Part shown: piece by piece, positions 7,590 through 12,790 of the stretch
How the letters are laid out: the number at the start of each line of letters is the position of its first letter
Position numbering within the stretch: the first letter of the stretch is position 1
Notes under the pieces: generated by a model
The model's database searches: none
What the model saw: only the letters and a program-made list of their open reading frames with translations
Told to the model about the DNA's origin: nothing
Sequence record: DRR723986_23521
Length of the DNA: 55,598 bases
Reading direction: 5' to 3' (one strand)
Program-made: the position numbers and the translations under genes

Positions 7590-10500
7590 TTATTCTTCGT
7601 CTTCTTCTTTTACTTTTTTCTTTAGAGATTCTGCAGCATCTCCTTTTTTAGCTGTATCATACATTAAAGGTGTTGCAATAAACATAGATGAGTATGTACC
7701 CACAATAACACCCACGATTAATGCAAATAATAATCCTCTTAAAGAATCTGCACCAAAGATGAACATTGCTAATAAAACCACTAATGTTGTCACAGACGTA
7801 TTTAATGTTCTGCTTAATGTACTATTTAAAGATGCATTAATTGTTTTACCAAATTCCCAAGACGTATGCTCATTTAAGAACTCTCTAATTCTATCAAATA
7901 CTACCACGGTATCATTTAAGGAATAACCAATTACCGTTAATATCGCTGCTATAAATGCTTGGTCAATTTCCATACTAAATGGCATAAACTTCCATGTTAA
8001 TGAGAAAATTCCCAATACAATTAATACATCATGGAAAACAGCTGCAACGGCACCAAGTGAGAATTGCCATTTCTTAAATCTAAATAATATATATAAGAAT
8101 ACTACAACTAAAGAACCTAATACAGCCCAGAATGATGATTTCTTAATATCATCTGCAATTGTTGGACTAACTTTACTAGATAACATCTTACCAATTTTAG
8201 CATCACCAGAACCATCCAAAAACTCTTGATAAGTCATTCCTGGTGGTAAATATTTTTGTAATGCACCAAATAATTTAGATTGCACCTCTTCATCTGCCTC
8301 CGTTGAGTTATCTTCTACTTTATATTTAGTAGATATCTTTAACTGATTAGCACCACCAATAGTTTTTACTTCAGCACTATTAAATACATCATTAAGATCA
8401 CCTTTTACTTCTTCTACACTTACTTCCTGATCAAAACGTACTTGGTATGTTCTACCTCCGACAAAATCAATACCTTGATCTAAACCAGTTGTAAATAATG
8501 ACCCTAAACTTGCTAATAATAACACACTAGAAATTACGTATGCTATCTTTCGTTTTTTCAAGAAATTAATATTTACATTCTTAAATAATCCTTTAGTCAT
8601 TCTTGTTGAGAAATCTAATTCTCCACCTCTATTAGCATACCAGTCTATTAATAAACGTGTAATAAAGATTGCTGTAAATAAAGATGTCAAAATACCAATG
8701 ATTAAGGTAGTTGCGAATCCTTTAATAGGACCTGTACCAAATACAAATAAGATTAAAGCTGTTAACCCTGTAGTGATATTCGCATCTAAAATTGAAGATA
8801 ATGCATTTGCAAAACCATCTTTAATAGATTCTTTCTGAGATTTTCCTTTTGCTATTTCTTCTCGAATACGCTCAAAGATAAGTACGTTAGCATCAACCGA
8901 TATACCTATTGTTAATACAATACCCGCAATACCAGGCAATGTTAACACTGCACCTAAACTCGCCAACACACCAAATATTAATAAGATGTTTAGTAATAAT
9001 GCGATATCTGCAAATCCACCTGCTTTACCATAATAGAAAATCATCCAAAGTAAAACGAAAATCAAAGCAATACCAAAAGACTTAATTCCACTATCAATAG
9101 CTTCTTGCCCAAGCGAAGGACCAACCTCATCAGCTTGTACAATCTCAGCAGAAGCTGGTAATTTACCTGCTCTTAAAACATTTGCTAAATCTACTGCTTC
9201 TGTTAACGAGAAAGCACCTGATATTTGAGATCTTCCGCCTGCAATAGGTCCAGTTGTAACACTTGGCGCAGAATAAACAATATCATCTAGTACAATAGCT
9301 ATGTAACCTTGAGTTTCATAGGCTTTGGTCGTCATTTCTTCCCAAATTTTAGATCCTTTGGCATTCATTTGCATACTAACCGCAGGTCTACTAATTTGAT
9401 CATAATCTTGTCTAGCATCAGTAATCACAGCGCCACTTAATTGTGGAACTCCTTCCCTATTACTTTTAATAGCATATAATTCTGAGAACTCAGAATCTTT
9501 TTGTTGGATGCCCCAAACAAATTTTACATTACGCATTTCTGCAGGTAATAAAGATCTGTTTTTAGCTTTGTTTAACTCTGCAATAACATTATCCTTGTCC
9601 TTTGCCAAGAATACACCAACAACAGGTCCTCCATTTCCATAACTCTGAATTCCTAAAGGATTTACATCTGCTACATTTGTTGAGTCACTTTCAATTTGTC
9701 CGGTTAAATCATCAATAGCACTAGACGTTGTATCCTGAACTTCTCCAGCCTCTGCAATCTCATCTTTAGGTTCTGCTTCTTTATTTGCTTCGACTAAAGC
9801 TTGATTTACTTGCAATATATAAGGTAAAACCTCTTGAGTTTTGTACGTTTCCCAAAATTGTAATTGAGCCGTTTTTGTAATAATATCTACAACACGTTTC
9901 TTGTCTTTGGCTCCAGGTAATTCAATTAAAATACGACCAGAGTTACCTAAACGTTGAATGTTTGGAGAGGATACACCAAAACCATCAATACGATTTCTTA
10001 ATACTTCAAAAGCAGAAACTATAGATTCATCTATTTTTCTTTCAATGATACCTTTAACCTCATCGTCTGACATATTGAATTTAATCTCATCACTTAAATC
10101 ACGATTTGCAAAAATATCTGGAGAAGCCAATTTTGTATCTCCCTTAATAGCATCAAACGCTCTAAAGAAGGATTCTAAATAAGATTCCTGAGCATCTTTT
10201 TGTAATTCCTCAGCATCATCTAACGCCTGATTGAAAATAGGATCTTTACTATTATTTGCCAATCCTTTTAAAATATCCTTTACAGATATTTGAATGATGG
10301 CATTAATACCACCCTTTAGGTCTAAACCTAATTTCATAGCATTTTTCTCTACCTCAGCATAGGTATATTCAGAAACACCTATGTCGTATACCTTTATTGA
10401 TTCAAAGTTATCTCCAACTTTATTTTTTGAAGTTTTTAAAGAATCGAGATAGCGAATCTCAGCTACGCTTCTTAAGTCTTGATAATTTGCCACTGATTCG

Positions 10501-10631
10501 TCATACTGAGCCACAGCAGCAGCTTTCGCCTCATCTTCTATTTGATTTGCCTTAAATGTAAATGATAGTTGGTATATACTTACCAAACCAAACAAAATAG
10601 CAAAAAGCTTAATTATTCCTTTGTTTTGCAT
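7590..10631 (-). CDS. secDF: Protein translocase subunit SecDF (fused)
   Basis: LGLDLKGG, VGPSLG, GISVDANVLIFERIREE, GIDFVGG, GYSLNDTVVVFDRIRE. Confidence 0.98.
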   Translation of the reverse strand: MQNKGIIKLFAILFGLVSIYQLSFTFKANQIEDEAKAAAVAQYDESVANYQDLRSVAEIRYLDSLKTSKNKVGDNFESIKVYDIGVSEYTYAEVEKNAMKLGLDLKGGINAIIQISVKDILKGLANNSKDPIFNQALDDAEELQKDAQESYLESFFRAFDAIKGDTKLASPDIFANRDLSDEIKFNMSDDEVKGIIERKIDESIVSAFEVLRNRIDGFGVSSPNIQRLGNSGRILIELPGAKDKKRVVDIITKTAQLQFWETYKTQEVLPYILQVNQALVEANKEAEPKDEIAEAGEVQDTTSSAIDDLTGQIESDSTNVADVNPLGIQSYGNGGPVVGVFLAKDKDNVIAELNKAKNRSLLPAEMRNVKFVWGIQQKDSEFSELYAIKSNREGVPQLSGAVITDARQDYDQISRPAVSMQMNAKGSKIWEEMTTKAYETQGYIAIVLDDIVYSAPSVTTGPIAGGRSQISGAFSLTEAVDLANVLRAGKLPASAEIVQADEVGPSLGQEAIDSGIKSFGIALIFVLLWMIFYYGKAGGFADIALLLNILLIFGVLASLGAVLTLPGIAGIVLTIGISVDANVLIFERIREEIAKGKSQKESIKDGFANALSSILDANITTGLTALILFVFGTGPIKGFATTLIIGILTSLFTAIFITRLLIDWYANRGGELDFSTRMTKGLFKNVNINFLKKRKIAYVISSVLLLASLGSLFTTGLDQGIDFVGGRTYQVRFDQEVSVEEVKGDLNDVFNSAEVKTIGGANQLKISTKYKVEDNSTEADEEVQSKLFGALQKYLPPGMTYQEFLDGSGDAKIGKMLSSKVSPTIADDIKKSSFWAVLGSLVVVFLYILFRFKKWQFSLGAVAAVFHDVLIVLGIFSLTWKFMPFSMEIDQAFIAAILTVIGYSLNDTVVVFDRIREFLNEHTSWEFGKTINASLNSTLSRTLNTSVTTLVVLLAMFIFGADSLRGLLFALIVGVIVGTYSSMFIATPLMYDTAKKGDAAESLKKKVKEEDEE

Positions 10632-10776
10632 TGTTGTAGTTATTTAATGTCGATTTTTTTGAACGCGAAAATATAAAGTTTACGGTCTAATACGACAAGT
10701 GTTTTTTAATGTTATAAATGAGTTATAGCTTTTTGATTGAATTATAAAAGCTAAATGGGAAGTTTTGGGAATTATT

Positions 10777-11397
10777 TTAGATTATAAATTCCCTTTTTGA
10801 AGGTCCTGCTCTAACTTCAGGGATGATATAAGATATATTATCAATTGCCAAAGCAACAGTACCATTTACTTGGATAGCAACCTTGGCTTTAACATTATAA
10901 TTTCCTAAGCTACGATTTTCACCAGAAAGCTTATCGGTTGGATTATTGAAGCGATCAGTTTTCTGATTGAGTTCGGTGACTTGAATGCCGTCAAAATCCC
11001 AGTTTGTATCTCCTCCATTTTGAATTTCTGAAATGTTAAGTTCGTAATCATTCCTATTCTCTGGTAAATCACTTGAATTATTTTGATTCGTTTGATACGC
11101 AAACTTAAAACCATCTTCTTGAGAAAGTATATTCTGAATAAGGTTTACATCAGTATCACTGTAATAGGTGATTCTCAGTTTCCCATCTTCATGTTGCTCA
11201 ATATTAATATGACAAACACCAATATTCTGAAGTTGTTTTTTTACTGCTTCTATAGTATTTTTAGCATCTTCAGAAGAAATATTCGTATCAGAAAACTGTA
11301 TTACAATTTGTTGGTTAGGCACAATTGTTTGCTCTACATACGTTCCTAAAAACACAAAGAGCATTACAATAATTCCTAATTGTAATTTAATTTTCAT
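10777..11397 (-). CDS. Exported protein with C-terminal RAGP motif; candidate translation-arrest (secretion monitor) peptide upstream of secDF
   Basis: N-terminal hydrophobic signal/anchor; ends ISYIIPEVRAGPSKREFII; RAGP codons at 10801-10812; same strand, 145 nt upstream of secDF. Confidence 0.7.
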   Translation of the reverse strand: MKIKLQLGIIVMLFVFLGTYVEQTIVPNQQIVIQFSDTNISSEDAKNTIEAVKKQLQNIGVCHINIEQHEDGKLRITYYSDTDVNLIQNILSQEDGFKFAYQTNQNNSSDLPENRNDYELNISEIQNGGDTNWDFDGIQVTELNQKTDRFNNPTDKLSGENRSLGNYNVKAKVAIQVNGTVALAIDNISYIIPEVRAGPSKREFII

Positions 11398-11443
11398 GCG
11401 GTAAATATAGAAAAAATATAGGATTTCTCTACAGATTTACGAA

Positions 11444-12580
11444 TTACGTATGTCTATACTCCCTATTTTGAATAACAGGTATTGAAGATTTATTATCTTT
11501 TGGAGTATTCTTAGGTTTTTTACCATAACCGATAAGCATAAAGGAATGGTTAGGAAGGAGTTTATTGGCAGCAATAGCGATAAGCATACTTACTCCCACT
11601 AAAAGGGCAATTATGATTGCATAAGACAATAACGCATAATTTGATAAATCTAAATTAAAGTAATCTGTTATAACAAAAATCAGCTTTAAAACATAGACAT
11701 GCAAAAAGTAGATTGCAAAACTCGTGTTAGCTAGATTATTAATAAAGTTGCTTTTTATATGCTCAAATCGGTGTAACCAAATCATAAAAAATAAGCAAAC
11801 AAAAACCATTTTAAAAATTAAAGTATCTACACCATCATAAGTTAAAAATTCATTCTTATACAATCCTACATCTCCCATATTAGTCTGTAAAACAACAAAT
11901 AAAACAATTATTAACAGCAAGTATATTTCTTTACCTTTTAATAATTTGTAAATCCTGTCTTTATGTATCGCACAGATAATTCCCATCAGATATAAAGGAG
12001 TAAAATAAACTACAGATTGTATAGCCTGAAATAGAAATAGGCGTTCATAGGGTCTTTGAACACATGAAGCTATAATTAAAAGCATACTAAATATAATAAG
12101 CTGTTGCTTTAATTTTAGTTTAATAAATGCCACATGCAATGGTGACATTATTGCCATTATTAATACAAAAGGAATATACCAATACGCTGTAATGTGAGCG
12201 CCAGATATCAGGTATTTAAATGTAGATACTAACTGCCAAGGCAATCCATTATTAGCAACCAAATCAGAATTATCCCAATAGCTTGGAATTGTAATTAAAC
12301 AAACCAGTATTGGTAATATAGATAAGAATAAATACGGTTTTAAAAAACGATCTACTCTTGCCTTTAAAAAATCTGAATAATTATATCTCTTATATAAAAC
12401 AATATAAAAGAGAAAGCCAGAAATAAAAGAAAAGTTTAATGTCGAACCGCTAATAGCGTTGAATAGAAATTTGCTTGTGTAAGTATCTAATTGTACATCC
12501 GAAACAAATCTTGCATGCACAGCAACTATAAATATAATCGCTAATGCTCTGTAGTGATTAAGAGAATTTAAATACTTCAT
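11444..12580 (-). CDS. Acyltransferase family 3 (OafA-like) membrane protein
   Basis: RALAIIFIVAVH, FSFISGFL, YWYIP, SFAIYFLH; many TM segments; ATG 12580 preferred to TTG 12595. Confidence 0.88.
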   Translation of the reverse strand: MKYLNSLNHYRALAIIFIVAVHARFVSDVQLDTYTSKFLFNAISGSTLNFSFISGFLFYIVLYKRYNYSDFLKARVDRFLKPYLFLSILPILVCLITIPSYWDNSDLVANNGLPWQLVSTFKYLISGAHITAYWYIPFVLIMAIMSPLHVAFIKLKLKQQLIIFSMLLIIASCVQRPYERLFLFQAIQSVVYFTPLYLMGIICAIHKDRIYKLLKGKEIYLLLIIVLFVVLQTNMGDVGLYKNEFLTYDGVDTLIFKMVFVCLFFMIWLHRFEHIKSNFINNLANTSFAIYFLHVYVLKLIFVITDYFNLDLSNYALLSYAIIIALLVGVSMLIAIAANKLLPNHSFMLIGYGKKPKNTPKDNKSSIPVIQNREYRHT

Positions 12581-12790
12581 ATTTGGTGCATTCAAAGTAT
12601 AAATCGTTTATCTCATCTAATAGGTGTTAATAAGATTAACCATACTTTAATTGTTCCAAATGTATGTTTGGGATGCGTTCATACCATAAAAAATAGATGA
12701 AATCATTAAAATCACCTATAAGAAGGCATTTTACAAGCTAATAATGAGCTTTATAAGGCAATTACAGTACATATTCTACTATCATAGAAT

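Follow-up and report, generated by a model that had tools for sequence, protein, structure and literature searches.

Small open reading frames (ORFs) located upstream of secA, secDF or yidC (upstream ORFs, uORFs) were screened in more than 30,000 genomes by Fujiwara et al. (2024, Nat Commun 15:2711; PMC10987492), who required each ORF to combine a localisation signal with a C terminus that is conserved and with more than 30 residues of spacer. The uORFs with RAPP-like ends constitute the RQH family, which is grouped by bacterial order and whose groups are reported to have no overall similarity among one another. The group uDF_RQH_Flavobacteriales is the closest described relative of the element considered here, a 206-residue uORF located in front of secDF in the 55,598-nucleotide (nt) stretch of DNA from sequence record DRR723986_23521 (the whole stretch is called the window below). 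Sequence comparison supports the assignment of this uORF to the already described and experimentally tested group. As an arrest peptide it is nothing new: the group was surveyed and its representative tested before. What appears not to be in print is the link of the arrest peptide to the SecD P1 domain and the elements located between the uORF and secDF.

According to the same paper, arrest by uDF_RQH_Flavobacteriales was observed in PURE systems and with in vivo reporters, and is efficient with Bacillus subtilis ribosomes and less so with Escherichia coli ribosomes. Replacement of the arginine or proline of the motif with alanine was reported to abolish or weaken the arrest “in most cases”, and in all RQH members the third residue of the motif is described as occupying the stalled ribosome's P site. 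The tested representative, “Aequo_subli”, is 204 residues long and was encoded by a synthetic gene; the construct covered residues 19-204, and the mutants were R199A and GP201AA. Export-released arrest that raises the expression of the downstream gene was shown there solely for uDF_RQH_Enterobacterales.

The following features of the window locus are relevant for the comparison (AF2, AlphaFold model).

10777..11397, minus strand: the uORF, assigned to the arrest-peptide group; a 206-residue frame with 171 homologues at E<=1e-3 and a core shared with the tested representative.
11335..11385, minus strand: N-terminal hydrophobic segment (residues ~5-21), a putative export signal or signal-anchor, from the sequence and the AF2 helix.
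11023..11316, minus strand: predicted ferredoxin-like domain (residues 28-125, beta-alpha-beta-beta-alpha-beta in AF2), collinear with the N-terminal part of SecD P1.
10801..11040, minus strand: P1-head-like segment (residues 120-199) ending at the arrest motif, from hhalign and hmmsearch.
10801..10824, minus strand: arrest core I192-P193-E194-V195-R196-A197-G198-P199, from conservation in 104 sequences.
10777..10800, minus strand: variable seven-residue tail and TAA, from column entropy and tail lengths.
7590..10631, minus strand: secDF, the presumed regulated gene, from the NF009585 (1357 bits) and Pfam matches.

The uORF starts with ATG; its product begins MKIKLQLGIIVMLFVFLG and ends ...ISYIIPEVRAGPSKREFII. 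The N terminus, MKIK followed by LQLGIIVMLFVFLG, combines a charged head with 14 hydrophobic residues, and AF2 places a helix at residues 3-21 with a predicted local distance difference test score (pLDDT) of about 93; no clear AXA cleavage site was seen there by eye (no signal-peptide predictor was applied). About 175 residues lie between residues 21 and 198. RAGP occupies residues 196-199 (codons 10801-10812, minus strand) and is followed by seven residues, SKREFII, and the TAA codon at 10777-10779. The 145 nt spacer leads to secDF, transcribed in the same direction, whose 1013-residue product exceeds the cutoff of the NCBIfam equivalog NF009585 (1037 bits) and contains the Pfam domains SecD_1st (207-261), P1_head (396-493) and SecD_SecF_C. 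The original prediction, made from the letters of the window, had described a hydrophobic N terminus, RAGP with seven residues after it and a same-strand position 145 nt before secDF, and the translation of the ORF, the coordinates and the NF009585 match agree with it on each point.

RAGP occurs once in the window, against an expectation of 0.093 from composition. This count refers to 24,331 residues in open frames, taken from stop to stop over all six frames at a length of 60 residues or more. RAGP is also reported to be under-represented across bacterial proteomes (PMC12992588). No Pfam family, SecM included, matched the uORF at E<=1. Direct assignment of the uORF to a Pfam or NCBIfam family was rejected, as the matches were all sub-threshold, including those to SecD models (E ~0.01), and none reaches its cutoff.

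The uORF can be compared with the tested peptide through the published primers and the numbering of the constructs, which cover the two ends of that peptide. Primers KFpr_27, 28 and 15 encode ...SYKIPEVRAGPLT, i.e., ITSYKIPEV(R->A)AGPLT, and VSLEQST at residue 19 (PMC10987492); the window counterparts of these ends are ...ISYIIPEVRAGP and GTYVEQTI. The eight-residue core IPEVRAGP is identical in the two peptides. As the mutants are numbered R199A and GP201AA, RAGP of the tested peptide should lie at residues 199-202 and leave a two-residue tail, while the 206-residue window peptide has it at 196-199 with seven residues to the end. Of the family members gathered from loci (130 in all), a length of 204 residues is found in 24 and an arginine at position 199 in 25. 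Both peptides are encoded before secDF in the order Flavobacteriales, are about 205 residues long and have an N-terminal localisation signal. They differ in the residue located two positions before the proline of IPEV, which is I in the window (Y-I-I-P) and K in the tested peptide (Y-K-I-P). The species differs as well: the nearest named relatives of the window uORF belong to Winogradskyella, and Aequorivita is absent among the names of the ten distant members that were looked up. The string EVRAGP is absent from nine supplementary files of PMC10987492, a check outside of which lies the secDF-uORF list (MOESM6). Set beside the published description of RQH members, the uORF is a small same-strand ORF without annotated function directly before secDF, with an N-terminal signal or transmembrane segment, an order-conserved RAPP-like motif near the C terminus and more than 30 residues between the signal and the arrest site, and in the compared ends it resembles the tested representative.

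Most of the 171 homologues found by the database search with the uORF are 203-208 residues long; the named ones are mostly from Winogradskyella and include other Flavobacteriales genera, e.g., Aquimarina. RAGP stands at the equivalent place in 118 of the 120 homologues listed. For the two metagenome-derived exceptions, MAGP (P0033) and RAAP (P0082), the cause may be an error of sequencing or a natural loss of arrest. When one genome per species was scanned, 401 stretches encoding a relative were obtained, and the best 80 were analysed; besides Winogradskyella, these represent over a dozen genera of Flavobacteriaceae. All 80 have RAGP, in a set biased for the motif by one of the two scan patterns, which contained it; all 80 also have secDF downstream on the same strand, at a distance of 129-271 nt (median 156.5).

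A motif-free query, consisting of the first 150 residues of the uORF, matched 154 out of 401 genomes of the same family, so the group is common in the sampled genomes, and had no match in the other 247. Another type of uORF upstream of secDF, uDF_NAP-stop, has been reported in Bacteroidota (PMC10987492). RAGP with a short tail was present at the C end in all 50 motif-free matches examined (30 best and 20 weakest listed), even at N-domain identity of 22-30%, and secDF follows in 49 of these loci, the remaining one ending at a contig edge. Names attached to the distant members are Nonlabens, Pontimicrobium, Gilvibacter, Patiriisocius, Kordia and Mesoflavibacter.

In the alignment of 104 sequences each of the positions 192-199 is at least 90% conserved and P193, R196, A197, G198 and P199 are invariant; in the column profile residues 155-188 are highly variable and entropy exceeds 3 bits directly after P199. 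The tail comprises 2-10 residues, two in 87 of 131 members (a set collected by requiring RAGP). The exported part of the peptide is conserved too, with N28, Q29, F35, L56, Y78 and S80 invariant or nearly so, unlike in classical monitors. The alignment of uORFs upstream of secDF, proposed originally as a check, has thus come out in favour of the proposal: the motif is invariant, residues 155-188 and the tail vary, and secDF is downstream. The claim of a RAGP-type arrest peptide before secDF is supported by the identical core, motif conservation, fixed synteny and the stalling of the tested orthologue, and the suspicion of homology to a peptide already described has proved right, uDF_RQH_Flavobacteriales having the same core IPEVRAGP.

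Considering the anatomy of the uORF, its orthology to the tested peptide, the invariance of the core and the fixed synteny with secDF, we regard it as quite probable that the uORF encodes a secretion-monitoring arrest peptide of the uDF_RQH_Flavobacteriales group. Its N-terminal hydrophobic segment would target the nascent chain to the Sec translocon. At ...IPEVRAG with the A site holding Pro-tRNA, peptide-bond formation would be blocked by the RAPP/RAGP “pre-attack” mechanism as solved for ApdA, ApdP and SecM. From the toeprints of RQH members (PMC10987492), the expected occupant of the P site is Gly198 (10804-10806) and that of the A site is Pro199 (10801-10803); these two codons, 10801-10806, are the ones for which a ribosome-profiling peak had been predicted. 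Pulling on the exported part of ~175 residues would release the stall, so ribosome dwell time at codons 198/199 would report export capacity, and poor export would lead to higher secDF expression. Stalling dependent on R and GP was shown in print for an orthologue and is expected of the window peptide by its sequence likeness; that pulling ends the stall and that secDF is controlled by it are steps that we infer.

Comparison with other arrest peptides shows both shared logic and clear differences. E. coli SecM, encoded in front of secA, shares with the uORF the C-terminal RAGP and an expected stall in which Gly occupies the P site and Pro the A site; the two peptides are also alike in being exported, presumably released by pulling force and encoded upstream of a Sec component. 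However, SecM regulates secA while the uORF precedes secDF, and the SecM element F....WI....GI is absent from the uORF, which reads SY(K/I)IPEV before RAGP (SYIIPEV in the window). The spacer to the regulated gene is also much longer than that of SecM, and folding predicts no unmasking for the uORF (see below). Classification of the uORF as an E. coli-type SecM was therefore rejected, given secDF downstream, SYIIPEV before RAGP and the lack of a SecM Pfam match. ApdA/ApdP (RAPP, before secDF) and Vibrio VemP (before secD2F2), both compared with the uORF by description, have the same gene context and presumed logic. ApdA/ApdP share the R-A-x-P core with the uORF, their mechanism having been solved by cryo-EM (PMC10951233), and differ in having RAPP and in belonging to other phyla, while the motif and mechanism of VemP are described as unrelated (PMC10951233).

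The C-terminal part of the peptide resembles the protein encoded by the gene it precedes. BLASTP aligns uORF residues 135-199 with residues 398-462 of the window's own SecDF, the aligned segments ending ...AIDNISYIIPEVRAGP and ...VLDDIVYSAPSVTTGP, respectively. Profile comparison with hhalign was weak when 35 peptide sequences were used (16%), and reached 92.3% probability (E 5.5e-7) with 104 peptides against 32 SecDF N-terminal halves, where uORF 120-206 corresponds to SecDF 383-471. In the controls (reversed profile, 30 column shuffles) the score was at most 21.2 versus 54.7 for the real pair, and the probability did not exceed 1.1%. The last ~23 residues of the peptide carry most of this signal; without them the best match pairs residues 46-99 with SecDF 205-259 (score 25.6), which agrees with the comparison of the N-terminal half (uORF 30-104 versus SecDF 182-264, probability 7.6%). 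A hidden Markov model (HMM) of the family, run against 1274 open frames of at least 80 residues from the loci and the window, gave 131 self matches; next came SecDF, with matches at E<1e-3 (best 6.8e-9) in 60 of the 79 frames that are long enough for the P1 head.

This HMM search also revealed a ~300-residue protein whose gene stands, at some of the loci, directly upstream of the one for the peptide, and phmmer with one such protein located its gene in 12 of them (in our numbering of loci, L045:3056-3964, L067:3056-3958, L065:3050-3964, L006:3066-3959, L075:3004-3906 and L073:3044-3958, as well as L046, L068, L083, L088, L106 and L110; in L106 it is split over two frames). An acyltransferase gene (11444-12595) takes its place in the window. 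All six proteins scanned carry Pfam SecDF_P1_head (PF22599) above cutoff (E 1e-15 to 1e-19), and by eye these proteins start with lipoprotein-like signals; judged by its sequence, the ~300-residue protein is a stand-alone, lipoprotein-like paralogue of SecD P1. With one P1 lipoprotein as query, E values were 1e-37 to 1e-24 for SecDFs and 3e-7 to 6e-6 for five peptides, which it matched directly. With ten P1 lipoproteins hhalign aligns the peptide family over 201 columns (97.1%, E 7.8e-11), peptide residues 1-205 corresponding to lipoprotein residues 20-294. The lipoprotein consensus ...VYSAPGVSAGPI.. is aligned where the peptides read ...SYKIPEVRAGP.

The likeness to SecD P1 (PF21760 SecD_1st plus PF22599 SecDF_P1_head) and to the lipoprotein is collinear over the whole peptide, which differs in being devoid of a middle part of ~70-90 residues and of everything past ...GP of the head. 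Its N terminus is plainly hydrophobic, the lipobox being found on the P1 lipoprotein side. The head motif Y-S-A-P-x-V-(S/T)-(A/T)-G-P of SecDF and the P1 lipoprotein faces Y-K-I-P-E-V-R-A-G-P in the peptide, with (S/T)(A/T)GP in the position of RAGP.

PF22599 and PF21760 have no match at E<=1 to the window uORF and 35 family members, and hmmsearch of PDB sequences with the family profile found no SecDF chain. A first AF2 model based on 35 sequences was discarded as too poor (mean pLDDT 50). The better model has a mean pLDDT of 70, with residues 1-99 at ~90 (helix and ferredoxin-like domain) and residues 137-165 below 50. VIA-align of this model gave generic ferredoxin-like matches with Z 8-10 and SecDF P1 (3aqo_A) at rank 38 with Z 7.3 (root-mean-square deviation 2.7, 77 residues aligned), the confident part of the model being the N-terminal domain only. 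Foldseek of the model against PDB returned generic ferredoxin-like rows, none of them at E<=1e-3.

The profile-level matches (SecDFs, lipoproteins and the HMM search) indicate that the peptide is homologous over its full length to the stand-alone P1 lipoprotein and to the SecDF P1 head. Since RAGP takes the place of (S/T)(A/T)GP, a truncated duplicate of the regulated gene is suggested. We lean, if only slightly, towards the view that the arrest peptide is a truncated duplicate of the first transmembrane segment and P1 of SecD, cut about three quarters through the P1 head, that RAGP arose by one or two substitutions in the head motif and that the upstream lipoprotein is a surviving intermediate. 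The words “duplication” and “SecD-like” do not occur in the main text of PMC10987492, and a further literature search likewise found no such proposal, supplementary PDFs being outside of this check. The Discussion of that paper leaves it open whether RAPP-like arrest peptides had a single or a repeated origin. The SecD P1 link offers a testable example of independent birth of an arrest peptide from a neighbouring gene; if true, it would show concretely, and for the first time, how an arrest peptide that monitors Sec was born, and the exported part may mimic a SecD domain for a reason, e.g., release could depend on SecDF itself.

Alignment of 40 spacers and the search for conserved boxes revealed the following elements around the gap between the two genes.

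10767..10793, minus strand: hairpin 1, GGGAATT/AATTCCC, with the uORF stop codon in the loop (RNAalifold).
10727..10752, minus strand: hairpin 2, AGCTTTT/AAAAGCT; 78.2% of cells pair, with both-side changes in 3 of 7 pairs.
10648..10698, minus strand: long-range helix with the 5' arm TGTCG in 10691-10698 and the 3' arm CGACA in 10648-10654, from covariation.
10668..10675, minus strand: promoter-like -7 box in the spacer, TATATTTT in the window and TAnnTTTG in relatives (105 of 127 loci).
11402..11409, minus strand: promoter-like -7 box located 4 nt before the uORF ATG, TATATTTA in the window and TAnnTTTG in relatives (125 of 131 loci).

Hairpin 1 starts ~13 nt past the first base of the P-site codon and keeps the stop codon in or beside its loop among relatives; RNAalifold finds 4 pairs with compensatory changes, and 60.8% of cells pair in the manual register. 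The local folds after the stall site have a mean z of -1.1 versus shuffles. In the long-range helix, which has 7 pairs (93.6% of cells pair), the 3' arm comes to within ~17 nt of the secDF ATG. One of its pairs is GC in 24, UA in 10, AU in one and GU in one of the spacers, and the neighbouring pair is AU in 15, GU in 15 and GC in 6; the recurrent G-U pairs favour a helix in the sense-strand RNA. The helix brackets a strongly conserved spacer block, ...GTAAAYTCTATATTTGCGCG. Several relatives, e.g., L011, L018 and L024, have an extra hairpin inserted inside this helix. Two other pairings were dropped. In one, GAAGT of the P-E-V codons would meet ACTTC past hairpin 1, and only 49.5% of cells pair; in the other, secDF codons 5-10 would meet the 3' arms of both hairpins, a pairing present in the minimum-energy fold of the window and lost in relatives with a differing hairpin 2 (by eye).

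The -7 promoter motif of Bacteroidota is TAnnTTTG, which the conserved spacer block and the box before the uORF fit as putative promoter elements; the window carries one-base variants of both. The spacer box lies mostly 32-38 nt before the secDF ATG. The box preceding the uORF was found within 40 nt upstream of it and ends 4 nt (110 loci) or 5 nt (11 loci) before the ATG, suggesting a leaderless or nearly leaderless mRNA of the monitor. Four metatranscriptome runs contain contigs that extend from the uORF across the spacer into secDF (e.g., X14, 9870-11152, 1 mismatch); they stop at 11369-11375 and leave the upstream gene uncovered. The segment 11433-11716 is not covered by a contig in any of the four runs, which is no proof of a transcript start. 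No intrinsic terminator was predicted in 10400-11700. The contigs fit a single RNA that begins at the peptide gene and runs into secDF, though they do not prove it.

Several points weigh against the uORF being a secretion monitor that controls secDF. The published arrest belongs to an orthologue, examined on ribosomes of B. subtilis and of E. coli, that reads Y-K-I-P where the window has Y-I-I-P, and control of secDF by the Flavobacteriales group is our inference. The Y..P.V..GP pattern is also conserved, presumably for structural reasons, in SecDF and the P1 lipoprotein, so part of the motif conservation could be inherited rather than arrest-driven. Assembled contigs cannot prove a single transcript, and given the promoter-like box between the genes, independent transcription of secDF is also possible. 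The 231 nt spacer fold of the window is no more stable than shuffles (z -0.88). Partition-function folds of 81 loci, in which a 32 nt ribosome footprint at the stall site was forced unpaired, gave a predicted openness of the secDF start (-20..+15) of 0.629 for free and 0.623 for stalled RNA, with 8 loci going up and 19 down; in the controls it was 0.626 for a footprint 45 nt upstream and 0.629 for a terminating ribosome. SecM-type unmasking of the secDF start was accordingly rejected, since the stalled footprint does not raise the predicted openness. Classical unmasking is thus unsupported by computation, and the coupling of stall to secDF is a presumed step. Thermodynamic folds ignore kinetics and proteins, and every characterised Sec/YidC monitor is described as acting via mRNA structure near the downstream start (PMC10951233, PMC13183943). 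It is nevertheless conceivable, though we hold it for the less probable option, that the peptide arrests ribosomes with another output: the stalled ribosome might stabilise or reshape a two-gene transcript from the uORF promoter, with an inner promoter giving basal secDF expression, or the stall might serve targeting or turnover of the peptide itself. The unchanged start accessibility, the position of the stall site ~170 nt before the secDF ATG, the frequent spacer box and the lack of a predicted intrinsic terminator fit such an output. So does the covarying helix: as its 5' arm lies upstream of the box, it could be formed only in read-through RNA from the uORF promoter. The promoters, for their part, are putative ones, read from the -7 consensus.

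A quite different explanation would be that the uORF encodes an ordinary exported or membrane-anchored SecD-P1-like protein, RAGP being a structural remnant of the P1-head motif that plays no part in stalling. Conservation across the whole protein, not at the C terminus alone, and the presence of (S/T)(A/T)GP at the RAGP position of homologous P1 proteins could be read in this way. However, the ORF ends 2-10 residues past the motif, about three quarters into the P1 head, which must leave the head incomplete; invariance of R and A is limited to the arrest-peptide family, and the tail varies freely in sequence and length. We therefore find this explanation very improbable. Nothing was found in favour of a third explanation, in which both the ORF and its motif are products of chance. 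Conservation already refutes it, given the number of homologues, the matches to the motif-free query and the fixed synteny with secDF, and the low expected count of RAGP in the window speaks against it as well; it deserves practically no credence. For the preferred reading, a secretion-monitoring arrest peptide, the locus offers defined and conserved RNA and promoter elements with which the coupling of stall to gene can be tested in Bacteroidota, a phylum in which Shine-Dalgarno pairing is rarely used.

Within secDF, the initial 33 nt (10599-10631, codons 1-11) are almost invariant across genera, third codon positions included, and contain an invariant small hairpin, GCAAA...TTTGC. This near-invariance may reflect a constraint on initiation.

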